From the NCBI GenBank assembly GCA_024641285.1, contig JAHEDH010000001.1, positions 4,135-68,134 of the forward strand: a stretch of DNA of 64,000 nucleotides, given 5' to 3'. The translations under genes were made by a program, and so were the position numbers. Of the stretch, positions 434 to 15,546 are shown piece by piece (within the stretch, counting starts at the first letter, position 1; each line of letters opens with the position of its first letter). This DNA comes from a bacterium (GTDB taxonomy: Bacteria; Actinomycetota; Acidimicrobiia; Spongiisociales; ZC4RG35). The notes beneath the pieces are model-generated. The model had not been told where the DNA came from. It made no database searches and was given only the letters and a program-made list of their open reading frames with translations.

Positions 434-1255
434 TCAGATTCGAGACGCCATCCTCCCAGACCCGCCGTCTTCTCGGGAATCGCCCGCTCGGATGGGGATG
501 ACGATGACACCATCGTCGTCGGAGATCACCCGCACCCTGGCCCCGTAGTGACGCCTGATCGTGTCCGGAGTCAGCACGCCCTCGGCAGAGCCCTCGGCGA
601 CGATCGACCCGCCGGCGAGCATGACGAGACGGTCGCAGAACTGGGCGGCGAGCGTGAGATCGTGGACCGCCGAGATGACGGTCAGGCCGCAGCTGCGGCG
701 GATCGCATCGATGTGATCGAGCACACCCATCCGAACGCCGACGTCGAGCGCACTCGTCGGCTCGTCGAGGAGAAGCACGGGACATGCCTGCGCCAGCGCC
801 CGGGCGATCACGACCCGCTGTCGCTCCCCACCGGACAGGTCTTCGACTCGTTTCGATGCGAACGGCCCCAGGTCGAGGTCGGCGATCGCGACGTTGGCGG
901 CCAGCACGTCGTCCGGCGACTCGACTCCGAACCGGCCCAGATAGGGATTCCTGCCGAGCATGACGTAGTCGATGACCGACATCCCGGGAGGGATGACAGG
1001 GCTCTGCGGGACCAGCGAGACGCGCTTCGCCCGTTCGATCGGGCTGAGGGACCGCATCGACTTCCCTCCGATCTCGACCGCTCCCGAGGAATCGAGCAGA
1101 CCAGCGGCGGCTTCGAGCACCGTCGACTTGCCGGCACCGTTTGGCCCGATGAGGCCCACCCACTCGCCGCGGTCGACGGCGAGGTCGAGGCCGTGCACCA
1201 CGGGCCGCCCCGATCGGCGAACGGTGAGCTCCCTGATCTCGACGGTGCCGATCAC
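434..1255 (-). CDS. ABC transporter ATP-binding protein, iron-siderophore/cobalamin type (BtuD/FepC-like)
   Basis: Walker A GPNGAGKST, signature LSGGERQRV, Walker B LLLDEPTSALD; GTG start overlaps the stop of the upstream permease as GTGA. Confidence 0.85.
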   Translation of the reverse strand: MIGTVEIRELTVRRSGRPVVHGLDLAVDRGEWVGLIGPNGAGKSTVLEAAAGLLDSSGAVEIGGKSMRSLSPIERAKRVSLVPQSPVIPPGMSVIDYVMLGRNPYLGRFGVESPDDVLAANVAIADLDLGPFASKRVEDLSGGERQRVVIARALAQACPVLLLDEPTSALDVGVRMGVLDHIDAIRRSCGLTVISAVHDLTLAAQFCDRLVMLAGGSIVAEGSAEGVLTPDTIRRHYGARVRVISDDDGVIVIPIRAGDSREDGGSGRMASRI

Positions 1256-2292
1256 AGTGATCGCCTCGACGTCCGCAGGACGAGGACGAAGAAGGGCGCC
1301 CCCAGGAACGACGTCACCACCCCGATCGGAAGCTCGGCCGGCGCCATGACGTTCCTGGCTGCCAGGTCTGCGGCGACGAGAAAGGCGGCGCCGGCGAAGA
1401 GCGAGAGCGGCAGCACGACCCGATAACTCGTGCCGGCGACGAGCCGGACGGCATGCGGCACGATGATGCCGACGAAGGCGATGAGGCCGCTGACGGCCAC
1501 CGCCGCAGCAGTTCCTGCGGTGGCCGCGATGACGACGATGGTTCGAACCCGGTTCACGTCGACGCCCAGCGACGCTGCCTCGTCGTCGCCGACCGTCAAC
1601 ATGTCGAGCACCCGGCGGTAGCTCAGCATCACTGCGATCGACACTGCGGCGTAGGGGGCGAGCAGCGCCACTTCGGTCCAGCCGGACGTCGAGAGGCGGC
1701 CAAGGATCCAGGCGAACACCTCCCGGAGCGTTTCGGAGTTCCGCTGCTGGACGAAGGTCGTCAAGGCCGTGAAGAAGGATGCCATCGCCACTCCCGCGAG
1801 GATCAAGGTCGTCGCCGATCGGTCACCCATCGTCCGGCCGAGCGTGAAGGTCGCTACGACGGCGCCGATGCCCCCGACGAACGCCGCCGGAACGACGAGC
1901 GCGGCCGGAAGTCCAGACACGATTGCCAGCGTGGCGCCGAGCGCCGCCCCGGCCGCGATCCCGAGAAGGTACGGATCGGCGAGCGGGTTGCGAAACACCC
2001 CCTGGTAAGAGGCGCCGGAGATGGCCAGCGTGCCGCCGACCATCATGCCCAGCACGACGCGGGGGAACCGCCACGACCACAGAATGTCCTGTTGGATCTC
2101 GGACAGGCCCGACTCGATCCCCACCCCAGGAATCCGCGACAGGATCTCGGTCAGCACCTGGCCCACGCCGATGTCGGCGGGACCGACCAGGGCGCCCACG
2201 ACGAGGGCCGCTGCAACGAGTGCGCCGACGACGGCCAGCGCCGGCCACGCGAGCCTGGTCGGCTTGACGAGCGGGGTCCGGACGGCCGTCAC
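1252..2292 (-). CDS. FecCD-family ABC permease (BtuC-like)
   Basis: Polytopic membrane protein with FecCD-type motifs (GAALGATLAIV, VAADLAARNV...PIGVVTSFLGAPFFVLVL). Start taken at GTG 2290-2292, overlapping the stop of the binding-protein gene (GTGA); the 403-aa ORF extension is out-of-frame overlap. Confidence 0.8.
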   Translation of the reverse strand: MTAVRTPLVKPTRLAWPALAVVGALVAAALVVGALVGPADIGVGQVLTEILSRIPGVGIESGLSEIQQDILWSWRFPRVVLGMMVGGTLAISGASYQGVFRNPLADPYLLGIAAGAALGATLAIVSGLPAALVVPAAFVGGIGAVVATFTLGRTMGDRSATTLILAGVAMASFFTALTTFVQQRNSETLREVFAWILGRLSTSGWTEVALLAPYAAVSIAVMLSYRRVLDMLTVGDDEAASLGVDVNRVRTIVVIAATAGTAAAVAVSGLIAFVGIIVPHAVRLVAGTSYRVVLPLSLFAGAAFLVAADLAARNVMAPAELPIGVVTSFLGAPFFVLVLRTSRRSL

Positions 2293-3278
2293 CCGTTCAG
2301 CCCCAGGATGACATCGGAGATCGCCCGGAAGAACTGGACGATCCGCGGTCCCCACCGCGACGAGACGTCGGAGTCGATCACGGTCACCGAGCCTCGCTCG
2401 ACAGCGGAGAGGTTGTCCCAGCCGGGCCGCTCCGCCACCGTCGCCACGGTGTCGCCGCAGCAATCGGTCACGAAGATGAGGTCCGGGTTCGCCTCGATCA
2501 CGTATTCGGGAGAGAGCTGGGGATATCCGAACCCGTCGGCGTCGGCGGGATCGGCGATGTTGACCAGCCCGAAGGCGTCGTAGACCCTGCCGATGAACGT
2601 ATCGGATGTGATCGAGTACAGCGTCGGGTCGAGCTCGTGATACACCGTCAATCCTTCGGCGAGCGTCCCGGCGTCGTCGATCGCCGCCTGGATCTCGGCT
2701 TCGAGCACGGCAGCGGCGTCGGCGGCGCCGTCGGAGTTCCCGGTCGCCTCGCCCAGTTGCCGCATCTGCTCGTACACGTCGGAGAACTCGAGCGCCGCGG
2801 GGAGCAGGAGAACCGGGACGTCGACGGCCTCGAGGGCGCCGACGATCCCGTCCAGATCGTTGGCGACCACCACGAGGTCGGGGGCGTATGCGCCGATCGA
2901 CTCGAGATTCGGGGTGAAGCCCGAGAGCTCGGTGACGGGAGCGTCTTCGGGGTAGTACGAGAACTCGTCGACCGCCACGACCTGGTCGCCGGCTCCGATC
3001 GCAAAGAGCATCTCGGTGGCGGTCGGCGAGAGGGAGACGATCGCCTCGGGACGGGATGGGATCTCGACGGTCCCGTTGGCCGCCTCGACCAGCGCGAACG
3101 GGCCATCGGGCTCGGAGACCGTCGTAGCTCTCTGTGCGGCGGTCGTCTGCACCGTCGTGACCGGCGCAGCCTCGGCCGAAGACGGGGTGCCGGCTGCGGA
3201 GGAGCCGCAGGCGGCAGCAACCATTGCGAGGGCGGCCAGCAGGGCGCTCGACCTGCCGATCCGATTCGAGTTTTCCAA
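2289..3278 (-). CDS. Periplasmic-binding-protein-type ABC substrate-binding lipoprotein (BtuF/FecB-like)
   Basis: Lipoprotein signal SALLAALAMVAAACGSS; class III SBP features. Start proposed at TTG 3276-3278, seven nt after a GGAGGA Shine-Dalgarno; the longer listed ORF would run through the riboswitch. Confidence 0.75.
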   Translation of the reverse strand: MENSNRIGRSSALLAALAMVAAACGSSAAGTPSSAEAAPVTTVQTTAAQRATTVSEPDGPFALVEAANGTVEIPSRPEAIVSLSPTATEMLFAIGAGDQVVAVDEFSYYPEDAPVTELSGFTPNLESIGAYAPDLVVVANDLDGIVGALEAVDVPVLLLPAALEFSDVYEQMRQLGEATGNSDGAADAAAVLEAEIQAAIDDAGTLAEGLTVYHELDPTLYSITSDTFIGRVYDAFGLVNIADPADADGFGYPQLSPEYVIEANPDLIFVTDCCGDTVATVAERPGWDNLSAVERGSVTVIDSDVSSRWGPRIVQFFRAISDVILGLNG

Positions 3279-3283
3279 AGCTG

Positions 3284-3306
3284 CATCCTCCGGTGATCGG
3301 AGGATG
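3284..3306 (-). promoter_or_regulatory. Perfect hairpin (9-bp stem, 5-nt loop) sequestering the GGAGGA ribosome-binding site of the binding-protein gene; probable riboswitch expression platform
   Basis: catcctccg-gtgat-cggaggatg is a perfect inverted repeat; on the minus strand it contains the GGAGGAUG immediately upstream of the TTG start. Confidence 0.5.
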
Positions 3307-3334
3307 AAGGGGTGAAACGCCTGACCTTCTGGGC

Positions 3335-3495
3335 CGGGAACGAGACAGACCTTCATCCGAGGTTGTGATTCGTCACGGACGGCGAGGCGACCTGGCTCGG
3401 CCCCGAAGGGCTCCACAGTTGCGGGACAGCGCCGGGTTCGCACCGGACTTCGCTCTCCGACCGTGTCCGGCGGTTGTGCCGGATACCGGCACGCT
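3335..3495 (-). ncRNA. Cobalamin (B12) riboswitch
   Basis: Minus-strand reading contains GGAGAGCGAAGUCCGGUGCGAACCCGGCGCUGUCCCGCAACUGUGG...GAGCCAGGUCGCCUCGCC, matching the conserved cobalamin-riboswitch core (GGUG.GAA.CCGG.GC.GUCCCGC.ACUGU) and the GCCAGG..CCUGCC B12-box region. It sits 5' of a B12/iron-type ABC uptake operon plus cobO. Boundaries are approximate. Confidence 0.7.
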
Positions 3496-3545
3496 AGCGA
3501 TCCGCCGAGGCCCCTGCACGGTGCAGCGCACTACCGTCGGATGGA

Positions 3546-5177
3546 ATGTCGGAAATCAGCACTCTCGCCAACGAATACTTCGACTATCGGCAGTCGACCG
3601 ACCATCAGCGTCTGCTCTGGAGGGGTGACCTCGATCACATCGAGCAGTGGGAGGACGTCTCTCCCGATGGCCTGACAGCCCGGATTCGTCGGCTTCGACA
3701 TGCGGCCGATCGTGCGGAAACGGTCACGCCGGCCGACGCCGCCGAACAGGCACTGGCCGACACCATCGCGTTCACCGGCCGCTCGGAGGCCAACCAGCTG
3801 GTGTGGCGCACCGAGCGGGAGTTCCCGAACCCGGCCATCGGGCTGGTCTCGACCGTCCTGACCTTTCTGCCGAAGTACTCACTGGTCACCGCGGACCATG
3901 GCGCCGGATATCACGAGAAGCTGCGGCGGCTGCCGTCGTTCCTCGACACCGCAGGCCGGGTGCTGCGCGATGCCGCCGGCGGTGGTCGGCTCCCGCTCGC
4001 TCGACACCTGACCAGCACCATCGCCGCCATCGATGCCCACCTCATAAAGCCCGACGCCGCCAACCCGCTGCTCGCCCAGGCGCCGCCGACCGGGCTCTCC
4101 GCCACGGCGCAACAGGATTGGGCGGAGGTGACCGAAGGGCTCGTGCGCAGCGCCGTCCATCCTGCACTCGCCCGATACCGCGATGCCATGACGGCCGTCG
4201 CCGACCAGGCGCCCGACGACGCTCGACCCGGACTGTGCCACCTCGACGGCGGGGCCGACCTGTACCGAGATCTCGTGTGGTCCCACACGTCGCTCCCGCT
4301 GACCGGCGAGCGGGTCCACGAGATCGGGCTCGAACAGATCGCGCGGCTGGAGGACGAGTACCGGGAGATGGCAGGACCGATCTTCGGGACGAGCGACATC
4401 ACCGAGATCTACTCGCGGCTCCGCGACGACCCCGATCTGGCGTACGAGAGCGGAGCGCAACTGGTCAGAGACGCCACCAGAGCGCTCGAGCGGGCTAACG
4501 CGGTCGCCCCCGACTGGTTCGAGACGCTTCCCGTGTCCCCGTGCATCGCTGCCGAGATCGAACAGGGCGCCCTCGCCTTCTATTCGAGGCCGATCCCGGC
4601 TGTCGGCAAGCCGGGTAGCTTCTTCTTCAACACGTCGGACCCGTCCGCGTGGAAGACGTTCCAGCTCGAGGCCGTGACATTCCACGAGTCGATCCCCGGG
4701 CACCACCTGCAGCTGGCGCTGGGCGTCGAATCGGAGACGCTGCACGGCGTTCACACCGAGCTGCCGGTCACGGTCTACTCGGAAGGTTGGGGTCTCTACA
4801 CCGAACGCCTCGCCGACGAGATGGGGCTCTACTCGTCGGACCTCGATCGGCTCGGCATGCTGGCGGCGGACTCCATGCGCGCCTGCCGCCTCGTCACCGA
4901 CACCGGCATGCACGCACTCGGATGGTCACGTGATCAGGCCGTCGACTACGTCCTGGCGCATTCGCCGCTGAGCCGCGGGATCGCCGAGGGCGAGATCGAC
5001 CGGTACATCGGCATCCCCGGCCAGGCGCTGTCGTACATGATCGGGCGTCTCGAGATCGACCGGATCCGCGCCGCGGCCGAGCAGCGACCGGGCTTCGAGA
5101 TCAAGGCGTTCCACGACTCGGTTCTCCGCCACGGCTCGGTTCCGCTCGGAACCTTGAAGAGCCTCATCCTGGACTGA
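3546..5177 (+). CDS. DUF885-family protein (putative Zn-metallopeptidase-like)
   Basis: 543 aa; HESIPGHH motif and overall pattern typical of DUF885. Confidence 0.75.
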   Translation: MSEISTLANEYFDYRQSTDHQRLLWRGDLDHIEQWEDVSPDGLTARIRRLRHAADRAETVTPADAAEQALADTIAFTGRSEANQLVWRTEREFPNPAIGLVSTVLTFLPKYSLVTADHGAGYHEKLRRLPSFLDTAGRVLRDAAGGGRLPLARHLTSTIAAIDAHLIKPDAANPLLAQAPPTGLSATAQQDWAEVTEGLVRSAVHPALARYRDAMTAVADQAPDDARPGLCHLDGGADLYRDLVWSHTSLPLTGERVHEIGLEQIARLEDEYREMAGPIFGTSDITEIYSRLRDDPDLAYESGAQLVRDATRALERANAVAPDWFETLPVSPCIAAEIEQGALAFYSRPIPAVGKPGSFFFNTSDPSAWKTFQLEAVTFHESIPGHHLQLALGVESETLHGVHTELPVTVYSEGWGLYTERLADEMGLYSSDLDRLGMLAADSMRACRLVTDTGMHALGWSRDQAVDYVLAHSPLSRGIAEGEIDRYIGIPGQALSYMIGRLEIDRIRAAAEQRPGFEIKAFHDSVLRHGSVPLGTLKSLILD

Positions 5178-5284: not shown

Positions 5285-6412
5285 CTACTCCTGGCCGGAG
5301 CGGGCCCCGAGCTCGATCTCGAGCGTCTGGACGACCCCATTGCGATCGATCATCAATTCGATCGTGTCACCTGCCGCGAAGGCTCTGACCTGAGCTGCGA
5401 GATCGGACGGTTCGGCGACCAGCACGTCGTTGACCGCAAGGACGGTGTCGCCCACCCGGACGCCCGCCTGCTCGGCCGCCGTGTCAGGGGTCACCTCTGC
5501 GACCACTGCACCGGCGGACAGATCGGTCGTGTTGTCGAGCCTGACGCCGAGGAAACCGGGCACGAACTCGCCTCCGGCTACGAGCGCTTCGGCGACCCGG
5601 AACGCCCGATCGATCGGAACCGCAAAACCCACGCCGTCGTTGGCTCCGGAGCTCGAGTAGATCGAGACGTTGATGCCGATCACCCGGCCTTCGCGATCGA
5701 CGAGTGGGCCACCCGAGTTGCCCGGATTGATGGACGCGTCCGTCTGAAGCATGGATCGGGCGATCCCCTGTCCGCTGACGATGGTGCGGTCGACGGCCGA
5801 GACGATGCCGGCCGTCACTGTGGAATCGAGGCCCCAAGGTGATCCGAGGGCGATGGCAAGCGAGCCAGCCCTGGGCTTGGCGTCGAGGGCCAGCGGAGCT
5901 GCGGTGTACGGACCACCGTCGATGGAGATGACTGCGATGTCGTTGTTCATGTCTGCGCCAACGACGGTGCCGACGACCTTGTTGCCGTCGGAAAGGCGGA
6001 CTCGCACTTCGGAGAGGCCCTGGACCACGTGCTCGGCGGTCATGATGAGACCCGAGGCGTCGTAGATCACGCCGGTTCCAACGCCTTGTTCGATGCCGTT
6101 GGCGATCACCTCGATCTGGACGACGGACGGGAGAAGCGCTGCGGCAACATCTGCGATCGGCTCGGAGCCGGGAGCAGCGACCAGGGGATCGGTGCGAACC
6201 TCGGCAGGGTCGAGAGGAACGTTGGTGGTCGTGGTCGACTCGACGAACGAGGCAGGCACCTCTTGAGCCACGGCCGTTTCTGTCGGTGTCGGCTCGGTGA
6301 AGAGCCAGCCGATCCCGAGGCCGGAGACGAAGAGGGCGAGCGCCGTGATCAGGGTCGCGAACCGCCCGACTCGGCGGGCGGGCTCGGAGTTCGTGGTTTG
6401 GTCCATGGTCAT
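5285..6412 (-). CDS. HtrA/DegP-family trypsin-like serine protease with C-terminal PDZ domain
   Basis: N-terminal TM anchor; catalytic motifs TAEHVV...DIAVI...GNSGGPLV; PDZ-like C-terminus (GVRVGDTVLAVN). Confidence 0.85.
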   Translation of the reverse strand: MTMDQTTNSEPARRVGRFATLITALALFVSGLGIGWLFTEPTPTETAVAQEVPASFVESTTTTNVPLDPAEVRTDPLVAAPGSEPIADVAAALLPSVVQIEVIANGIEQGVGTGVIYDASGLIMTAEHVVQGLSEVRVRLSDGNKVVGTVVGADMNNDIAVISIDGGPYTAAPLALDAKPRAGSLAIALGSPWGLDSTVTAGIVSAVDRTIVSGQGIARSMLQTDASINPGNSGGPLVDREGRVIGINVSIYSSSGANDGVGFAVPIDRAFRVAEALVAGGEFVPGFLGVRLDNTTDLSAGAVVAEVTPDTAAEQAGVRVGDTVLAVNDVLVAEPSDLAAQVRAFAAGDTIELMIDRNGVVQTLEIELGARSGQE

Positions 6413-6418
6413 CTTTCA

Positions 6419-7639
6419 TTACCTCGCAGGGGGCTCATACAAACCTGGTACATCAATATCCGATGACCCGTAAAACTCGGGTAAACGGTCGTCGCTCATC
6501 GGAGGGGTGGAAGGGTCGGGCCCCTCGGGAAGGGCGATGGACAGGATCGACCCTCCTCCGGGCCGGATCGATGCAGAGAACCTCCCGGCGTGCATCGCAA
6601 CGATCTGTCTCACGATTCCCAGGCCCATCCCTCCGTTGCCGTGGTCGCCGTTGAGTGCGAACTCGACGTCGATGCCGGGTCCCTCGTCGAGCACGCCGAG
6701 ATAGGTCCATTCGCCCTGGCGTCTCACGACGACCCTGACGGCTGCTCCATCAGGGCTCTCGCGTACCGCATTGTCGACGAGATTCCCGATCGCCCGCCGC
6801 AACAGATTGGCGTCTGCGGCAACGGTGAGCGGCGCCGACGGGAGATCCCCCACCACCGAGACCCCACCCGCGCGAGCGGTCGGGCCGAAGTCTGCGACGA
6901 GCTCTGCGACGACTGCGCCGGGATCGATCGGGGTCAACGTGGAACCGGCGAGTTCCCGGCGTGCGACCGCCAACAGGTCGTCGACCATCACCGAGATCCG
7001 ATCCGCGGCTCGCTCGACGATCTCGCCGGTCTGTCGCCAGTCTTCGATCGTTGCGTCCGGATCGTGTGCGATGATCTCGAGGTTCGATCGGATCACGGCG
7101 AGCGGGGTGCGGAGGTCGTGCGACGTGTGCGCAAGGAACCGCTGTTGCGACCGGAACGAACCGGACAACCGGTCGAGCATCGCATCGAACGTGTTCGCCA
7201 TGCGGGTCAGCTCGTCATCGGGACCGTCGAGCGCGATGCGCCGATCCAGGTCGGTCGCCTCGATCTCGCGGGCAACGGACGTGATCTCATCGATCGGACG
7301 GAGCGACCGGCTCGCAACGATCCAGCCGACGATCAGCGAGAGAGCGAACAACGCCAGCATGATCGCGATGGTCCAGATCGCGAGCTGATTGAGGACGGCC
7401 TCCTTGAAGAAGCTCTCGATCGTTCGCATCTCCACCTGGGTCAGCCGGATGGCGACCCGCTCCCCGTCGACGAGGACCGGCTCGAGAGCCCGTTCGGTCA
7501 CGGTGAGCGACTGCACGGCGCGCAGAGTGACGAAGTAGATGCCGGCGAGCGCCAGGCCGGCAACGCTGAAGACGAGGGCCGATGTGAGGCCCGACAGCCG
7601 GAACCGGAGCGAACGTGTCACGGGTGGCAGTTGCATCAA
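6419..7639 (-). CDS. Sensor histidine kinase (MprB/CseC-like)
   Basis: Two TM segments and a HAMP-like region; H-box SHDLRTPL; N/G boxes (GNLVDNAVR, GGMGLGIVRQIV). Confidence 0.85.
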   Translation of the reverse strand: MMQLPPVTRSLRFRLSGLTSALVFSVAGLALAGIYFVTLRAVQSLTVTERALEPVLVDGERVAIRLTQVEMRTIESFFKEAVLNQLAIWTIAIMLALFALSLIVGWIVASRSLRPIDEITSVAREIEATDLDRRIALDGPDDELTRMANTFDAMLDRLSGSFRSQQRFLAHTSHDLRTPLAVIRSNLEIIAHDPDATIEDWRQTGEIVERAADRISVMVDDLLAVARRELAGSTLTPIDPGAVVAELVADFGPTARAGGVSVVGDLPSAPLTVAADANLLRRAIGNLVDNAVRESPDGAAVRVVVRRQGEWTYLGVLDEGPGIDVEFALNGDHGNGGMGLGIVRQIVAMHAGRFSASIRPGGGSILSIALPEGPDPSTPPMSDDRLPEFYGSSDIDVPGLYEPPAR

Positions 7640-7678
7640 GTCTCGAAACTATCCGCCCGTCGATAACGCACGCGTAAA

Positions 7679-8356
7679 TCAGCGGAGCACATACCCGCGC
7701 CCGGGCACCGTCTCGATGACTTGAGGCTCACCCAGCTTCTTGCGGAGGTTCGAAACGGTGACCCTGACGGTGTTCGTGAACGGGTCGGCCATCTCGTCCC
7801 ACACGTGCTCGAGGAGTCGCTCTTGGCTGAGCACTTCGCCCCGATGCCTCATGAAGTACTCGAGAAGGGCGAACTCCTTGACCGTCAGGGAGAGCGGTAC
7901 CTGGGCACGGGTCGCGACGAATGCCGCCGGGTCGAGAGCGAGGTCGCCGGCGAACAGCACCGGGGTGCCCCCGGACTCCCGTCGTAACAGCGCTCGAACT
8001 CTCGCCTCCAGTTCGGCGAACGCGAATGGCTTGACGAGGTAGTCGTCGGCACCGGCATCCAGCCCTGCGACTCGGTCCTCGATGGAGTCGCGTGCAGTGA
8101 GCATCAGCACCTTCGGCTCGAGCGATCCGAAGGTCTCCACATCGCCCGACCGCATCCGAGCGCACAGGTCGATCCCTCTGCCATCCGGGAGGTTCCAATC
8201 GAGGACCACCAAGTCGTACTCGACCGTCGAGACTGCGATCTCGGCTTCGAGAACGGACGCGACCGAATCGACCGCATGGCCACTGCGGCCGAGGCCACGT
8301 ACGATCGCCGAGGCGAGGTCTGGTTCGTCTTCCACCACCAAGAGGCGCATCGCCAC
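7679..8356 (-). CDS. OmpR-family response regulator
   Basis: REC domain (LLVVEDEPDL...DLVVLDWNLPDG) plus a winged-helix output (LTVKEFALLEYF...GRGYVLR). Confidence 0.9.
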   Translation of the reverse strand: MAMRLLVVEDEPDLASAIVRGLGRSGHAVDSVASVLEAEIAVSTVEYDLVVLDWNLPDGRGIDLCARMRSGDVETFGSLEPKVLMLTARDSIEDRVAGLDAGADDYLVKPFAFAELEARVRALLRRESGGTPVLFAGDLALDPAAFVATRAQVPLSLTVKEFALLEYFMRHRGEVLSQERLLEHVWDEMADPFTNTVRVTVSNLRKKLGEPQVIETVPGRGYVLR

Positions 8357-8449
8357 CGAACTGTATCGACGCCGCCGGCGGGCCGGGACCGACGACGCCG
8401 CTCGACCTGATCGATGGGTCGGTGCCGTGGCTCACTACATTCGTCGACG

Positions 8450-10777
8450 ATGAAGAAGCGGACACCGGTGCAACTGCCCGAGGAGATCTATCCCGACGAT
8501 CCGTGGGTTCTTCTCGAGGACCAATTCGCTCCCGACTTCCTGTACCTGACCGAGACGATCTTCGCGCTCACGAACGGCAGGATCGGTGTCCGCGGGTCGC
8601 TCGACGAGGGCGACCCGCACCACATCATCGGCACCTACATCAACGGCTTCCACGAGACCTGGCCGATCACGCACGCCGAGAGCGCATACGGGTTGGCCGA
8701 GGTGGGTCAGACGATGGTCACGATCCCCGACGGCACCCTCATCGAGGTGACGGTCGACGGCGAGCCGTTCCATCTGCCTTCGGTCGAGATCATCCGGTGC
8801 CGGCGGTGGCTCGACATCCAGCGGGGCATCCTGGAGCGGGACATCGCATGGAAATCACAGTCCGGCGTGACCGTCGAGATGCGTTTCCTCCGTTTCGTGT
8901 CGCTCGGCAGACCGGATCTCATCGTGTCCAGACTGGAGCTGTCCGTTGACATGCCGGCCGAGGTCACCGTCGTATCCAGGCTCCGCAACCGACTGGACGA
9001 GGTGGCCGATGCCGGCGACGAATCCGATCCCCGATTGGCGAAGCAGTTCTCCCAGCGGGTCCTGGAGCCGCGGGCCGCAACGCTCGAGGACTTCCGTTTC
9101 GTCCAGGCATGGGTGACATCGAGGTCCGGCATGGGACTGTTGTCGGGAATGGACCACGGTTTGTCGGGGCCGACACCCAGGGTGACACTCGACCGATCGG
9201 CGATGAACTTCGGCTTCGAGTTCTCGTGGAGCCTGACACCGGACGCAGGGGTGACGATCGACAAGTACGTCGTCGCCTCGGACAACGGCGATTCACCCGG
9301 GCTGGCGGAGCGACAAGCGATCGGGGCGACGCTCGACGAGGCCAAGGAACGGGGAGTCGCCGGCCTCGCCGCCGATCAGGCGCGTCATCTGGCCAGATTC
9401 TGGGCGGACAACGACATCGTCATCGAGGGCGCGGACGTCGAGACGCAGCGGGCGGTGCGGTGGACGCTGCTCCAGTTGCACTCGAACTCCGCTTGCCTCC
9501 GACACGCGAGCATCCCGGCCAAGGGACTCACCGGGCACGCCTACGACGGCCACTACTTCTGGGACACCGAGATCTACATCGTCCCGTTCCTGATCTACAC
9601 CAACCCGGCTGCGGCTCGAACCGTGCTCACACATCGATACGAGATGCTCGAACACGCCAGGGAGCGCGCCCGTGTCCTCTCACACGACGGGATCCTCTTT
9701 CCGTGGCGCACCATCAACGGGGAAGAGGCGTCCGCCTACTTCCTGGCAGGCACCGCCCAGTACCACATCAACGCGGACATCGTCTACGCGATCAGGAAGT
9801 ACGTCGAGGTCACAGGAGACCAGGAGTTCCTCTGGGAAATGGGCGCGGAGATCGTCCTGGAGACCGCCAAGTTCTGGCTCGACCTGGGCTTCTACCGGTC
9901 CGACCACTTCCACATCCATGGGGTGACGGGCCCGGACGAGTACACCGCACTGGTCGACGACAACGCCTACACAAATGCAATGGCGCGGATGAACCTCCGA
10001 TACGCCTTCGAGGTGGTCTCTCATCTGTCGAATGAGGACCCGGATCGATGGGACGACCTTCGAGCCAAGGTGGGGATCGCCGATGGGCAGGCGATCGAGT
10101 GGAGACTCGCCGCGGATGCCATGTACATCCCCCACGATCGCGATCTCGGGATCACACCCCAGGACGACGACTTCCTCGAGAAGGAGGCCTGGGACTTCGA
10201 GAACACGCCGGAATCGAAGTACCCGTTGCTGCTGCACTTCCACCCGCTCACCATCTACCGGTTCCAGGTGCTCAAACAGGCGGATGTCGTGCTCGCCGAC
10301 TTCCTGCTCGGCGAGGAGTTCAACCCCGAGCTGAAGCGGGCCAACTTCGACTTCTACGACCCGCTGACGACCGGGGACTCATCACTCAGCGCGTGCATCC
10401 AGGCGATCATGTCGGCGGAACTGGGGTACGAGTCGGCCGCGATGCGGCACTTCCAACACGCGCTGTACATGGACCTCGGCGACATCGCCGGCAACACGAC
10501 CGACGGCGTGCACATGGCGTCGGCCGGCGGGGTCTGGATGGCTTTGATCTACGGTTTCGCCGGCATGCGCGACGTGCGCGGGACGATCTCGTTCGACCCC
10601 AGGATGCCGAAGCAGTGGACATCGATGACCTTCCGTCTGGGCGTCCGAGGCGGCGCGCTCTCGGTCACGTTGAGCCACGAATCGATCACGCTTGTTTCGG
10701 GGCAGCCGATCGAGGTGATCGTCCGAGGCGACAGCCACACCGTCGAGCCGGGGGGCGGGACGGTCGTCCACCTCTGA
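8450..10777 (+). CDS. Glycoside hydrolase family 65 phosphorylase (kojibiose/trehalose/maltose-phosphorylase-like)
   Basis: About 775 aa; GH65 central catalytic region including GHYFWDTEIYIVPF. Start ambiguous (ATG 8414 or 8450). Confidence 0.8.
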   Translation: MKKRTPVQLPEEIYPDDPWVLLEDQFAPDFLYLTETIFALTNGRIGVRGSLDEGDPHHIIGTYINGFHETWPITHAESAYGLAEVGQTMVTIPDGTLIEVTVDGEPFHLPSVEIIRCRRWLDIQRGILERDIAWKSQSGVTVEMRFLRFVSLGRPDLIVSRLELSVDMPAEVTVVSRLRNRLDEVADAGDESDPRLAKQFSQRVLEPRAATLEDFRFVQAWVTSRSGMGLLSGMDHGLSGPTPRVTLDRSAMNFGFEFSWSLTPDAGVTIDKYVVASDNGDSPGLAERQAIGATLDEAKERGVAGLAADQARHLARFWADNDIVIEGADVETQRAVRWTLLQLHSNSACLRHASIPAKGLTGHAYDGHYFWDTEIYIVPFLIYTNPAAARTVLTHRYEMLEHARERARVLSHDGILFPWRTINGEEASAYFLAGTAQYHINADIVYAIRKYVEVTGDQEFLWEMGAEIVLETAKFWLDLGFYRSDHFHIHGVTGPDEYTALVDDNAYTNAMARMNLRYAFEVVSHLSNEDPDRWDDLRAKVGIADGQAIEWRLAADAMYIPHDRDLGITPQDDDFLEKEAWDFENTPESKYPLLLHFHPLTIYRFQVLKQADVVLADFLLGEEFNPELKRANFDFYDPLTTGDSSLSACIQAIMSAELGYESAAMRHFQHALYMDLGDIAGNTTDGVHMASAGGVWMALIYGFAGMRDVRGTISFDPRMPKQWTSMTFRLGVRGGALSVTLSHESITLVSGQPIEVIVRGDSHTVEPGGGTVVHL

Positions 10778-10795: not shown

Positions 10796-12151
10796 TCAGC
10801 CCTGAGGGGACACCGAGAGACGGAGCATCACCGCTTCGGAGTCGTACACCAGTCGGTAGTCGATCCCGTTGCGGCTGGTCGCCCCGTTGAGGCCTTGAAG
10901 TTGCGGGTCACGGACGTTCAGTCCCATCTCCGCCAGGATCAGGCCCCGCTCGTTCGGTTCCAGGGTCGGGTCGGCCACTGCGATCGCCAGACCGAGCGCC
11001 TGGATCCCCAACTGGTCCGAAGAAGAAGGCCCGGTCGGGTCGACCTCGATGGTGAAGGCGGTGAGTCCGCCTCCTGCCGAGCCCGGGAGGGAGCTGCCGA
11101 TCATCGCGATGTACTGGGTGAAGCCGACCTCGAAATCGCCTGCGGGAAGCGACGAGCGGAACCTCAGGTTCGGCGAGACCGTGGCGGCGGCGTCGTTCCA
11201 CCGTTGTACGAAGTCGTTCGAGGAGAGATCGAACACCGTCGGGTCGCCTGCCACCGTCGGCTCGACGACGGTCGTCGGCGTCGTGTCTACCGTCGTCGAA
11301 GGCGGGGTTGTGTCGGGAATCGTCGTCTGAGCGACCGTGTCCGGCGCAGGCTGGTCGTCACCGGTGAAGAAGTCGAGGACGACCGGGACGGCGAACACGA
11401 GTCCCGCAAGGACCGCGAGCGCGACCACCCCGAGGCCGATCTTCTTGAGGAGAGCAGGGTTGAAACCCATGGAACGTGCGCTCCGAAGCGTCCGCTGGCT
11501 CTCGAGTACCTCGTCGGCAACCGTGGACTCGCCGATCTCCTCGTCGAATTCGATCGGGGCATGCTCGTCGGTCGGGAACGAATAGCCGGCATCGCCGGGG
11601 ATCACGAAGCCGGAGGAGGCGCGCCGCTCTTCGGACTGGGGGTCGGCGCCGGACTCTTCGGCGTCAGGGTCCTCGTCGGCTTCCTGTCGCTCGCGAAACG
11701 AGCTCATCGCCGCGGCGAGCCGCTCACGCGACGACGGCCCGAATCTCGATACCGGCTCCTCGGCAGCAGTGGCCGGCTCTGAGCCGAACTCGGTGTCGTG
11801 GCCGTCCTGCAGAGTCGCGGAGGCGTCCTCGAGATCGGGCTCAGGCGGTAGCCCGGGGACCAGGGAGACGCGGTTCGGCTCCGGTGCCACCGGCCCGGAA
11901 TCGTCGTCTGCGTCACCGACCGCGTCGGCGAACGACGAGAAATCGGCGGGATAGAACGTCACCACATCGTCGGCGACCGACAACTCGTAGCCGCCGGAGT
12001 TGTTTCTTTCGAAGTGGATGGTGCCGCGATCCCAGAGGCCGATCTCCGCGAACGGAGTGGCCAATCTGATCTTCTCGTCCGTTATCTGCAGGTCGACATC
12101 GACCTCGTCGCCTTCGACGAGCACGATCCGACCGGGAAAGGTCCCGCTCAT
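10796..12151 (-). CDS. Hypothetical single-pass membrane protein, paralog A (cytoplasmic N-domain, acidic/Pro-Thr-rich linker, TM helix, conserved extracytoplasmic C-domain)
   Basis: TM LGVVALAVLAGLVFAVPVVL; C-terminal block ...ADPTLEPNERGLILAEMGLNVRDPQLQGLNGATSRNGIDYRLVY shared with the ORF at 13026..13982. Start chosen at M10 by alignment to the paralog. Confidence 0.6.
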   Translation of the reverse strand: MSGTFPGRIVLVEGDEVDVDLQITDEKIRLATPFAEIGLWDRGTIHFERNNSGGYELSVADDVVTFYPADFSSFADAVGDADDDSGPVAPEPNRVSLVPGLPPEPDLEDASATLQDGHDTEFGSEPATAAEEPVSRFGPSSRERLAAAMSSFRERQEADEDPDAEESGADPQSEERRASSGFVIPGDAGYSFPTDEHAPIEFDEEIGESTVADEVLESQRTLRSARSMGFNPALLKKIGLGVVALAVLAGLVFAVPVVLDFFTGDDQPAPDTVAQTTIPDTTPPSTTVDTTPTTVVEPTVAGDPTVFDLSSNDFVQRWNDAAATVSPNLRFRSSLPAGDFEVGFTQYIAMIGSSLPGSAGGGLTAFTIEVDPTGPSSSDQLGIQALGLAIAVADPTLEPNERGLILAEMGLNVRDPQLQGLNGATSRNGIDYRLVYDSEAVMLRLSVSPQG

Positions 12152-12247
12152 CTCTCGTCGCTTCTCAAGTGGATGCATAGCACTCTATGTCGGCGAACCG
12201 GCCGCTCTTCTTGAATCTCGTCGATCAAATGGGCCGATCGAACCGAA

Positions 12248-12907
12248 TCAGCCCCAGCAATGGCGGCTCGGGTTCCAGTGCGACCAGCCGCCCCCTTGAT
12301 ACACCAGCCAGGCCGCGACCGCGACGTTCGCCTCAGGATCGAAGATGTCTGCGCCCGCCAGCCCCGCCTTGACGCTCCGTTCGGGCCAGAACCGCCCGAG
12401 GTGTTGGAAGAGCCCGCTGGCCGACGACCGAGGATTCTTGGCGTCGGGGTCCCCGGATGACTCGCAGCCGATCACCCGGAGCGCCCGCGCGACATCCGTC
12501 GGGGCGAAATGTGCCTCGACCAAAGGGCGCCAGGTCTCCACATTGCGGGGGGCCAACGCCTTCCGCACGACGGCGGCCGGCTGGGCCTGGACGGCCCGCT
12601 TGGCCGGCGTCGCGCTCTCCGGCTCGGAGGTCGCGGGCAAGGGGAACTGCAGCCCGCCGCCCACCACCGTGGGGGCACAGGTCGCTCCTTCTCGCGGGAT
12701 TGCACACCCTGGGGGGAGGACGGCAGTCGTCGTGGTGGTCGAATCGACCACGGCCGAGAACTCCACCACCAGTGAGAACGATGCATGGGCCGGGCTCACG
12801 TCGACCGATGTGAGATGACCGGCGCCCGTCGACGTCCAGGCGCCACCGACGAACATCAGCGATGCGAGAACACCGAGACCGGTGAGATATGACGCAGCAG
12901 CACGCAC
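12248..12907 (-). CDS. Secreted SLT-domain (lytic transglycosylase-like) protein
   Basis: Signal peptide; motif CESSGDPDAKNPRSSASGLFQHLGRFW fits the SLT pattern E-S-x(n)-S-x-A-x-G-L-x-Q. Confidence 0.55.
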   Translation of the reverse strand: MRAAASYLTGLGVLASLMFVGGAWTSTGAGHLTSVDVSPAHASFSLVVEFSAVVDSTTTTTAVLPPGCAIPREGATCAPTVVGGGLQFPLPATSEPESATPAKRAVQAQPAAVVRKALAPRNVETWRPLVEAHFAPTDVARALRVIGCESSGDPDAKNPRSSASGLFQHLGRFWPERSVKAGLAGADIFDPEANVAVAAWLVYQGGGWSHWNPSRHCWG

Positions 12908-13025
12908 GGAAGTGACCTCCGCAAGATTGGGAACGCGGCATCGGCCGCAGGGAGCCCGACTGGTGGGCTTCGGTGACGAGAAGGCTATGCGGGGATCAAC
13001 GCCAATGCAAACGGGCGCGGCCGGC

Positions 13026-13982
13026 TCAGGCCTCGGGAGCGATGGTCAGCAGGACCGAGGAGAAGGACTGGAAGTACTTCATCGTGTATCGGATGCCGTT
13101 ACGCGAGGTCTCGCCGTCGAGGCCGCCGAGCTCGGGGAATCTGACGTCGAGTCCCATCTCTGCGAGGATCTCCCGCCGATCGAGCTCGCTCAGCGACGGA
13201 TCGGCGACCGTCATGGCGATGCCCCAGGAGACGATCGTCAGCTGGTCGCTGTCGGTGTCCCCGGACGGGTCGGCCACGACGACGAGCGAGCGGACGTCAC
13301 CCTCATCGTCCGTTGTGCCCTGAAGTGAGATGAGCGGCGCCAACTGGGTGTCGAACGATCCGCGAGGCAGGGCGTCCCTGATGAGCAGATTCGCCCCGAA
13401 CCTGGTCGCGACCCGGTTCCATTCGACCACGAGGAGCGAGGGCTCGAGGTCGAATGCGCTGACATCCGGGATCTCGGCACTGGTCGAGGGGCCGTCGAGT
13501 GTCACGGGCGGGGCGGTCACCGGTTCGTCTGCGAACACCGCTCGCACGAGCCACGTGCCGGCGAACACGATGACGATGACGACTGCCAGCACACCGAGCA
13601 GCGGCGACTTGAGCAGCGAAAGGTCGATGGGTGGGGTCCTCTGCCGCGGGGAATCGACGGCAGGCTCGAGGTCCTCGACCTTGTCCACCGACCGCACCAC
13701 GTTGATCCGGTCGGCCAGACTCGACGCCTTGAATCGCTGGGCTGCAACGATGGCGAACTGCCTGGCGTCGTCGGGTTCGAATGAGACGATCTCACCGTCG
13801 ACGCTGATCCGATAGGTGGACGCGTCCAGCTTGGAGACGCGGCAGTATTTGATCGGCCACGTCCCGATCAGCACGCTGTCTGCGCGCAGCGTGAGCGCGT
13901 CGGGCGATATCTCGAGGTCCACCGCCACGACATCCTGTTCAGGAAGTGTCAGCTTCCCGGAAAAGCGGTCGGCCACGGACAT
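13026..13982 (-). CDS. Hypothetical single-pass membrane protein, paralog B
   Basis: Same architecture as 10796..12151. N-domain (VAVDLEISPDALTLRADSVLIGTWPIKYCRVSKLDASTYRISVDGEIVSFEPDD) parallels paralog A; C-terminal ...ADPSLSELDRREILAEMGLDVRFPELGGLDGETSRNGIRYTMKY. ATG 13982 preceded by GGTGAGG. Confidence 0.6.
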   Translation of the reverse strand: MSVADRFSGKLTLPEQDVVAVDLEISPDALTLRADSVLIGTWPIKYCRVSKLDASTYRISVDGEIVSFEPDDARQFAIVAAQRFKASSLADRINVVRSVDKVEDLEPAVDSPRQRTPPIDLSLLKSPLLGVLAVVIVIVFAGTWLVRAVFADEPVTAPPVTLDGPSTSAEIPDVSAFDLEPSLLVVEWNRVATRFGANLLIRDALPRGSFDTQLAPLISLQGTTDDEGDVRSLVVVADPSGDTDSDQLTIVSWGIAMTVADPSLSELDRREILAEMGLDVRFPELGGLDGETSRNGIRYTMKYFQSFSSVLLTIAPEA

Positions 13983-14097
13983 CACGGTACCTCACCCGGA
14001 GTGGCATGTTCCAGCTTTCGACCCCGGCCCCGAGACTCATTCTCGACCGGGGAGAACGGGATTTCCGGCCGCAGAGGCGATCGGCGACAATGCGGCC

Positions 14098-15546
14098 ATG
14101 CGCTCGATGCTCGCCGGCGCGCTCGTCTTCTTCACGTCTGCGACCGTTCTGATCCTCGAGATCCTGGCGGGACGTCTCCTCGCGCCGTACGCCGGAGTGA
14201 CGCTCGAGACCTTCACGGCGATCATCGGCGTGGTGCTCGGCGGCATCGCCACAGGCACATGGCTGGGCGGTCGCCTGGCCGATCGGGCCGATGCGCCGGA
14301 GACCTTGATTGGGCCCGTGATGATCCTGAGCGGGGCACTGGCGGCCTCCACGGTGCCGCTCGCCCGCCTGCTCGGGCCGTCGATGGGCACCGACGGCATC
14401 GCCGGCCTGATCCTGCTCACCGTGATCGCCATCCTGCCGGCCACGGCCGTGCTCTCGGCGATTCCTCCGATCATCGTCAAGATCGTGCTCGACGACCTCG
14501 GACGCACGGGAGCGACCGTCGGCAGGATCTCGGCACTCGGGACCGCCGGCGCGCTCTTCGGAACATTCACGAGCGGCTTCCTCCTGGTCGCAACCCTCCC
14601 GACATCAGTGATCGTGCTGGCGGTTGCACTGCTCACGGCGGCCGCCGGGATCGTGCTCTGGTTTCGCTTCCGGCCCTCGAACCAGGCGCTCGCGACGATT
14701 GCACTGATCGGACTCGCAGCTGGGTCGGTGCTCACGGCGGCGGTACAGAGCCCATGCGACGTCGAAACGGCATACTTCTGCGCCTCGGAGGTCGCCGATC
14801 CGGACGATCCCGGTTCCTCGTTCCTCGTCCTGGACACAGTGACCCATGCCTATGTCGACATGGACGACCCGACGAGACTGCGGTTCACGTCGATTCGGAT
14901 GTTCGCCTCAGCCATCGATGCGATGACGGCTGGTCCCGTGTCCGCCGTGCACATCGGCGGCGGCGGGTATTCGATGCCGAGTTGGCTCACCGCGACCCGG
15001 CCTGGATCGAAGAACGTCGTCCTCGAACTCGATGGATCACTGGTCGAGTTCGTCGAAGATCGGTTCCATCCTGCACCGGTGGACCGGACCATCGTGGGAG
15101 ACGCCCGCGTGTCACTCGACGAGGCGGGCGACGGGTTCGATGTCGCCATCGGCGACGCCTTCGGCGGCCTCGCCGTTCCCTGGCATCTGACCACCCGGGA
15201 GTTCCTCGAAGAGATCTCCGATTCGCTCACCGAAGACGGGTTCTACGTGATGAACCTGATCGATCACGGTGATCTCGATTTCCTGAGAGCCGAACTGTCG
15301 ACCGCGCAGGCGGTGTTTCCCCACGTCGCGGTTGTCACGGTGCCTGAGCGCTTCGAAATCGGCGGGAACTTCATGCTGGTCGCCTCGAAACGCCCGATCC
15401 CCGAGGACGCGATCATCGCCGAGGCAGAGAAGCTCGAGTTGGTGGTCACAGCCGTCGGCGGCGACGGGCTCGACGTGTTCATCGATGGTGCGCCGGTGCT
15501 CATCGACGACTTCGCCCCGGTGGATCAGCTGCTCGCCACGTCCTGA
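14098..15546 (+). CDS. Spermidine-synthase-like (aminopropyltransferase fold) protein fused to an N-terminal polytopic membrane domain
   Basis: About seven hydrophobic helices followed by a spermidine-synthase-like domain (HIGGGGYSMPSW...DVAIGDAFGG...REFLEEISDSLTEDGFYVMNL). Start at ATG 14098; the listed ORF's upstream part overlaps the preceding minus-strand gene. Confidence 0.7.
   Translation: MRSMLAGALVFFTSATVLILEILAGRLLAPYAGVTLETFTAIIGVVLGGIATGTWLGGRLADRADAPETLIGPVMILSGALAASTVPLARLLGPSMGTDGIAGLILLTVIAILPATAVLSAIPPIIVKIVLDDLGRTGATVGRISALGTAGALFGTFTSGFLLVATLPTSVIVLAVALLTAAAGIVLWFRFRPSNQALATIALIGLAAGSVLTAAVQSPCDVETAYFCASEVADPDDPGSSFLVLDTVTHAYVDMDDPTRLRFTSIRMFASAIDAMTAGPVSAVHIGGGGYSMPSWLTATRPGSKNVVLELDGSLVEFVEDRFHPAPVDRTIVGDARVSLDEAGDGFDVAIGDAFGGLAVPWHLTTREFLEEISDSLTEDGFYVMNLIDHGDLDFLRAELSTAQAVFPHVAVVTVPERFEIGGNFMLVASKRPIPEDAIIAEAEKLELVVTAVGGDGLDVFIDGAPVLIDDFAPVDQLLATS

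Follow-up and report, generated by a model that had tools for sequence, protein, structure and literature searches.

Two paralogous single-pass membrane proteins and an SLT-fold protein in a conserved gene neighbourhood of Acidimicrobiia

What might two related membrane proteins do when they are encoded on either side of a putative wall-cleaving enzyme? This question is raised by a 64,000-nucleotide stretch of the contig JAHEDH010000001.1 (positions 4,135 to 68,134; assembly GCA_024641285.1, class Acidimicrobiia), which is called the window below. Its minus strand carries three open reading frames (ORFs): paralog A (13026-13985), an SLT-fold gene (12248-12907), and paralog B (10796-12178). An original prediction, made from the sequence without database searches, had placed three consecutive minus-strand genes here; their coordinates agreed with ours, and all the peptides that it quoted were found in the translations. 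The GC content at third codon positions was of the coding type in A (0.85) and B (0.82). The analysis showed that A and B belong to a genuine protein family that lacks annotation and is restricted to a single bacterial class. We tentatively favour the reading that A and B form a heteromeric transmembrane adaptor, which would position or control a membrane-anchored lytic transglycosylase.

The BLASTP comparison showed that the transmembrane (TM) helix and C-terminal domain of B are 36% identical to those of A over 219 amino acids (aa) (E = 2e-30), and that the N-terminal domains are 32% identical over 71 aa (E = 2e-8). The two proteins are paralogous in both globular domains, far above chance, which confirmed the relatedness claimed in the prediction. 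A single strong hydrophobic segment was found in each paralog (about residues 128-150 in A and 243-268 in B), flanked by basic residues on its N-terminal side and acidic residues on its C-terminal side. Because of these flanking charges, A and B are predicted to be single-pass proteins with the N-terminus inside and the C-terminus outside (N-in/C-out). No further A/B paralog was detected within the 64-kb window.

Paralog A (319 aa) comprises a PH-like domain, a short linker, a TM helix, and an extracytoplasmic alpha/beta domain. The PH-like domain (residues 5-98, 13692-13973; minus strand, as for all parts of the three genes) is predicted to be cytoplasmic. According to the AlphaFold2 (AF2) model and Foldseek, it has seven strands and a C-terminal helix, followed by a second helix at residues 90-97. 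The TM helix (residues 128-150, 13536-13604) is supported by a hydropathy peak of 2.81, the flanking charges, and an AF2 helix at the same residues. The extracytoplasmic domain (residues 176-319, 13029-13460) is common to A and B and shows the order alpha-beta3-alpha2-beta3 in the AF2 model. The start of A is ambiguous: TACCGT lies directly ahead of the ATG at 13982, from which the protein would have 318 aa. Translation from the GTG at 13976 would be leaderless and begin with MADRFSGKL, in agreement with the N-termini of some orthologs.

Paralog B has 460 aa, or 451 aa from the ATG at 12151. Its cytoplasmic N-terminal domain (residues 12-88, 11915-12145) is homologous to the PH-like domain of A by BLASTP and by a profile match, and lacks the K/C/R motif and the second helix of A. 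It is followed by a polyanionic disordered linker predicted to be cytoplasmic (residues 89-240, 11459-11914; net charge about -25 to -28 by charge count) and the TM helix (residues 243-268, 11375-11452; from hydropathy and charges). Beyond the membrane lie a Pro/Thr-rich extracytoplasmic linker (11249-11374; from hydropathy and charges) and the domain paralogous to that of A (residues 311-460, 10799-11248). The layout given in the prediction therefore stands overall, with a corrected linker: the acidic linker of B is cytoplasmic and the Pro/Thr-rich linker is extracytoplasmic. The label "sensor-like", which it had attached to both proteins, found no specific support. B probably starts at M10 and not at the upstream ATG at 12178, because the NCBI call, which starts at the ATG at 12151, has 451 aa and because a conserved TAnnnT (TAGAGT, 12187-12182) lies just 3 nt before the upstream ATG.

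As the prediction had stated, A and B belong to no named family. No family was reached at E ≤ 1 in Pfam and NCBIfam, including the Pfam PH and bPH_1-6 profiles, and the A/B profile matched none of the PDB sequences. In 68 diverse A/B-family members, no Pfam domain covered the N- or C-terminal region. The window proteins A and B gave nothing meaningful against Pfam, NCBIfam, PADLOC, and PHROGs; a defence-system or phage origin had no support from the last two. The possibility that A and B are anti-sigma factors of extracytoplasmic function (ECF) sigma factors was rejected: Pfam gave no anti-sigma match, the A-SLT-B loci contain no sigma gene, and in locus L022 another gene stands between the family member and an ECF sigma gene.

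The word-indexed homolog searches returned 48 clusters of A type and 36 of B type, none with a name beyond hypothetical. The exhaustive profile search returned at least 624 representatives at 50% clustering (E ≤ 1e-3), 260 of them at E ≤ 1e-10. Most representatives match through both domains, their length ranges from about 140 to 754 aa, and no family member is named other than hypothetical. The organism-named members all come from metagenome-assembled genomes (MAGs) of Acidimicrobiia. Among 28 A/B-family clusters no cultured host was found, all being from MAGs or metagenomes. A homolog search with the superfamily profile gave no extra taxonomic breadth among the matches listed.

The structure of A was modelled by AF2 from a 31-sequence alignment. 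The full model had a predicted local distance difference test score (pLDDT) of 80, with both globular parts confident, and its N-terminal domain formed a seven-strand sandwich closed by a C-terminal helix (pLDDT about 90). Only PH-like structures of the PDB were matched by the full model in Foldseek. Among the matches listed, which fall on the N-terminal domain, nearly all of the top 50 were PH, PTB, or FERM-F3 domains (probability 0.99-1.0, TMt 0.5-0.63). The modelled domain has the PH-like superfold without membership of a sequence family. It shares the sandwich and the helix cap with eukaryotic PH, PTB, and FERM-F3 domains and with bacterial bPH domains, whereas its identity to the PH-like PDB entries is 8-20% and the Pfam profiles of the PH and bPH families do not match it. 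The PH-like fold by itself points to no specific ligand.

The ectodomain was modelled separately from A- and B-family sequences. This model was of high quality (pLDDT 95.2, pTM 0.90) and showed the alpha-beta3-alpha2-beta3 order given above. The Foldseek search of the PDB gave no significant match (best E = 0.036, TM ≤ 0.37), and the search of BFVD gave one borderline, uninformative match (TMq 0.55). No curated family was matched by sequence or structure. An internal alpha-beta3 duplication of the ectodomain was rejected at the sequence level, as its halves had an hhalign probability of 0.3%. The prediction had named a confident mapping of both domains to a well-characterised family as evidence against it; the N-terminal domain proved to be generic PH-like and the C-terminal domain matched nothing.

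Conservation is unevenly distributed along the proteins. The mean pairwise identity in the A family was 61.5% for the PH-like domain, 48.4% for the C-terminal domain, and 23.3% for the linker and TM helix. The residues W43, P44, K46, C48, R49, D63, G64, E65, R84, F85, D92, R93, and R98 of the PH-like domain are invariant. The cytoplasmic domain is thus the most conserved region of A, a pattern that a specific partner-binding module would show. In the B family, the extracytoplasmic domain had a mean identity of 65.6%. The cytoplasmic linker of B varied from 145 to 415 aa in 33 homologs and was always polyanionic (net charge -20 to -78). This character (11459-11914 in the window; homologs P0050-P0084) is kept without sequence conservation. 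The A-type and B-type orthologs could be told apart in every locus, which argues that the duplication predates the divergence of the lineages.

The middle gene encodes a 219-aa protein that was annotated from the ORF, Pfam, and the ortholog alignment as an SLT/goose-lysozyme-fold, lytic transglycosylase-like protein. The window protein passed the gathering cutoff of Pfam SLT (PF01464) narrowly (23.1 bits, cutoff 21.3). Among 13 orthologs, 13 matched Pfam SLT (E ≤ 0.1, best 7e-7), 11 matched SLT_3, and 5 matched the Rpf-type family. The Rpf family (Transglycosylas, PF06737) did not match the window protein and was found in 5 of the 13 orthologs only, with a best E of 8.4e-4. The pattern WRPLV...C-E-S-x-G...A-x-N-P-x-S-x-A-x-G-L-F-Q-H...AWLVY..GGW.HW...CW is invariant in the 13 orthologs, including C148-E149-S150 and G165-L166-F167-Q168. 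Its Glu-Ser aligns with the catalytic pair in ES...GLMQ of EmtA and ES...GWFQ of phiKZ gp144. The SLT assignment made in the prediction was thus upheld by the gathering score, the 13 orthologs, and the invariant Glu-Ser. The fold carries an intact catalytic motif, and lytic transglycosylase activity is predicted.

The catalytic domain was delimited at about residues 124-219 (12251-12538) from the invariant columns and the alignment to EmtA and gp144. It is 64-88% identical across loci, far above the rest of the protein. A search for a closely related solved structure found none (best E = 0.044). Like the Rpf, SLT_3, and family-1 lytic transglycosylases (PF06737, PF18896, and PF01464), the protein has a goose-lysozyme-like domain of about 100 aa, with a GLFQ-type motif after the catalytic Glu-Ser. 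Like Rpf, it has cysteines near both ends of the domain; in Rpf domains the cysteines form a disulfide. Four cysteines are invariant in the orthologs, C148 and C217 and the extra pair C68 and C77. The protein differs from the three families in its marginal scores, and its putative N-terminal anchor and the pair C68 and C77 are specific to its own clade. The N-terminal hydrophobic segment is conserved (MRAxxS...GGAW), which suggests that it stays in the protein as a membrane anchor and is not cleaved off as a signal peptide. Such an anchor would place the enzyme in the same membrane as A and B.

To compare gene neighbourhoods, the window proteins were mapped onto 23 fetched loci (L001 to L023), equivalent to 17 different places in genomes. 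At 16 of the 17 places, A and B are neighbours. The SLT gene lies exactly between them in 12 (L001/19, L002/12, L008-L011, L013-L017, and the deep-branching L023), also where the identity of A falls to about 30%. A and B without SLT were found at four places (L004/5, L006/7, L020, and L021), and a singleton family member at one (L018). The A-SLT-B order is thus conserved in related genomes, as the prediction required. In locus L017, about 550 bp of extra sequence separate A and SLT (7912-8512), and the SLT frame is open from 8284, possibly giving an N-terminally extended form of 271 aa.

The spacer between A and SLT contains, at 12935-13010 of the minus strand, a candidate promoter-like element and hairpins, to which a regulatory function may be ascribed. 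Here TTGCAT (13010-13005) is followed after 17 nt by TAGCCT (12987-12982). One hairpin at 12969-12953 and another at 12948-12935 come next, and a C-rich tract and a GGAGG ribosome-binding site (12920-12916) precede the SLT gene. Close relatives keep this arrangement. In the MAFFT alignment of 13 diverged SLT leaders, the TAnnnT hexamer did not vary, and TTGnnn stands 17 nt upstream of it in the leaders examined by eye. Each of the 13 leaders has a short hairpin, whose structure appears to be kept and whose sequence is lineage-specific (by eye and from minimum free energy folds). The position of the promoter-like spacer is shared by L001, L002, L008-L011, L013-L017, and L023. A conserved TAnnnT is also found ahead of B. 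A scan of the locus for consensus sigma-70 promoters and terminators gave nothing above background, and an Rfam scan found no riboswitch or known RNA at E ≤ 1. Judging from the spacers, the SLT gene, and B too, can probably be transcribed on its own.

The following mechanism is proposed for the favoured adaptor. A and B, an ancient paralogous pair, would act together across the membrane. Because of the predicted topology, both C-terminal domains and the SLT domain would lie outside the membrane. The related ectodomains may engage the wall-proximal membrane face and, where it is present, the membrane-tethered SLT enzyme. The PH-like cytoplasmic domains could link this activity to a conserved partner in the cytoplasm or to a membrane site; A carries a highly conserved K/C/R/DGE surface and B a long polyanionic tail. 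That A interacts with B, that the pair touches or controls the SLT enzyme, and that it is linked to growth or division are all inferred. A stronger version seems improbable to us. In it, the A/B family would be an undescribed, Acidimicrobiia-wide class of bitopic envelope proteins whose PH-like module is coupled across the membrane to the ectodomain, and the ancient A-B heterodimer would be a dedicated switch licensing a tethered Rpf-like lytic transglycosylase. If it were true, wall cleavage in a major uncultured class of actinobacteria would be regulated by a principle not seen before.

Several observations weigh against the adaptor. The proposed interaction of A, B, and SLT is inferred from gene order and topology only, and the ectodomain offers no functional clue. 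A single A/SLT/B operon, which the prediction had assumed, is not established, because the SLT gene and probably B carry promoter-like elements (an invariant TAnnnT in 13 of 13 A-SLT spacers and the conserved one before B). At the SLT-less places, the gap between A and B measures 280-510 bp and holds no SLT remnant (all E > 0.1). SLT is a non-obligatory member of the cluster, and its clean absence in four lineages means that A and B must have a role that does not depend on SLT. In L018 and L022, singletons of the family stand in unrelated gene contexts. The conserved block also takes in a GH65 gene and genes for a response regulator (RR), a histidine kinase (HK), and an HtrA protease, so the synteny is not specific to three genes. 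Gene order thus speaks less strongly for a dedicated unit of three genes. From the cell-wall remodelling or signalling unit of the prediction, an uncharacterised system conserved with an SLT gene remains; the wall role is tentative, and the SLT gene is not obligatory.

Some details of these loci may be added. The SLT-less gaps lie at 6984-7263 in L004, at 6951-7363 in L006, and at the equivalent positions in L020 and L021; an SLT pseudogene was excluded in these four loci, where no remnant was found. The B proteins of the SLT-less lineages are among the longest (664-738 aa). In L022 (4804-6999), the singleton has 332 aa and is the second gene downstream of an ECF sigma factor gene, an MGMT-like gene being the first, which indicates that the family also serves in settings other than A-SLT-B.

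The four lineages that keep A and B without SLT also speak for the main, if somewhat unlikely, alternative that A and B are an autonomous envelope module, structural or signalling (for example a membrane-to-wall tether or a division/elongation scaffold), and that SLT is a frequent but facultative passenger with its own promoter. The conserved TTGnnn-N17-TAnnnT element with the structured leader upstream of SLT would fit such a passenger, as would a superfamily of at least 624 representatives that includes singletons. The polyanionic linker of B, with its variable length, may resemble a spacer or scaffold more than an enzyme regulator. This alternative is opposed by the identical position of SLT between the paralogs in 12 loci, including the deep L023. 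Selection on this position is likely, because the same placement across a deep divergence would be hard to keep otherwise.

The genes downstream of B extend the conserved block. A cytoplasmic GH65 glycoside hydrolase/phosphorylase (8414-10777, plus strand) is convergent with B and syntenic in 16 of the 17 loci; it is probably context only. It is followed, at times after a HAD/beta-PGM-like gene, by an OmpR-family RR (7679-8356, minus strand), which is syntenic in 16 of the 17 loci. A HAMP HK (6419-7639, minus strand) and an HtrA/PDZ protease (5285-6412, minus strand) come next in the window; all three were identified by Pfam, and the complete RR-HK-HtrA set was found in the window and L023. 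The larger block (5285-10777) is kept in L001, L002, L004, L006, L008-L017, L019-L021, and L023. The upstream flank of A varies by lineage (fused MFS/spermidine synthase, HrpB helicase, EAL protein, or D-serine dehydratase), so the conserved block starts exactly at A.

Conservation of a whole block of 7-8 genes, including the evidently unrelated GH65, could mean that the adjacency of A, SLT, and B reflects inherited synteny, in a region that rearranges slowly, and that the three proteins are functionally unrelated. We consider this quite improbable. The separate promoter-like elements agree with it, but the paralogs A and B, with the same topology, were already neighbours before the lineages diverged and have remained so, and A-(SLT)-B stayed together through several reshufflings of the upstream flank.

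A decidedly improbable alternative is that A and B, with or without SLT, serve the neighbouring OmpR-type two-component system and HtrA as an accessory component, on the input or the output side, in an envelope-stress island. It draws on the syntenic RR, on the complete RR-HK-HtrA set in the window and L023, and on the sharp boundary of the block at A. However, the cytoplasmic GH65 gene, sometimes with the HAD gene, intervenes, and the orientations differ. The two-component system is generic: among the NCBIfam equivalogs, the best score of the RR was for RppA (203.8 bits, cutoff 250), with CseB at 142 against a cutoff of 350, and the HK reached no equivalog cutoff. "MprAB/PepD-like" is therefore a description of layout only, and these genes share with the MprAB-PepD and CseBC-type envelope-stress modules only the RR-HK-HtrA arrangement. 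Accessory proteins such as LpqB for MtrAB and CseA for CseBC would be the analogues, but nothing in A or B is like the known accessory proteins of two-component systems.

The closest precedent in logic for A-B-SLT, by analogy, is SteA-SteB of Corynebacterium, two adjacently encoded single-pass membrane proteins whose complex interacts with the hydrolase RipC (PMC6705760). Both pairs are actinobacterial and consist of two single-pass membrane proteins encoded side by side, SteA and SteB in an apparent operon. In SteAB, one member has a large cytoplasmic domain and the other an envelope-exposed domain, whereas both kinds of domain are present in A as well as in B. Unlike A and B, SteA and SteB are not related as paralogs. 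RipC is an endopeptidase that is encoded elsewhere and also needs FtsEX, unlike the SLT gene between A and B. The likeness is one of logic and layout; no relationship in sequence to A or B was detected, and no search aimed at one was made. In staphylococci, the membrane-bound wall-cleaving enzymes of the pairs ActH-LytH and SpdC-SagB reportedly require a membrane-protein partner (PMC9245657; bioRxiv 10.1101/2021.03.06.434200). What would be new here is the protein family; a membrane-protein partner of a wall hydrolase is an already known kind of arrangement. The staphylococcal enzymes are an amidase and a glucosaminidase. ActH and SpdC are polytopic, unlike A and B, and neither pair is known to have a PH-like domain or to be paralogous.

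Acidimicrobiia are abundant in soils, freshwater, and oceans, and their cell-envelope biology is almost unknown. The A/B family, which combines its PH-like module with an ectodomain that has no relative of solved structure, may serve as an entry point to the control of wall cleavage in this class, and it could be a further example of wall hydrolases under the control of membrane partners of their own. Its practical value is limited and tests would be hard, because the traced members all come from MAGs or metagenomes, and the functional link comes from gene order and topology only.

Two further groups of genes lie beside the conserved block. A fused major facilitator superfamily (MFS)/spermidine synthase (13816-15546, plus strand) is divergent from A; it matched NF037959 with 322 bits and is conserved only in the close relatives L008-L010. 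Its true start is at about 14100 and the overlap of its ORF with the 5′-end of A is probably spurious, because the profile matches from residue 108. The region 434-5177 contains minus-strand genes for a FecCD permease, a Peripla_BP_2 protein, and an ABC ATPase (a siderophore/cobalamin-type importer), followed by a plus-strand DUF885 gene, and is unrelated to A-SLT-B.

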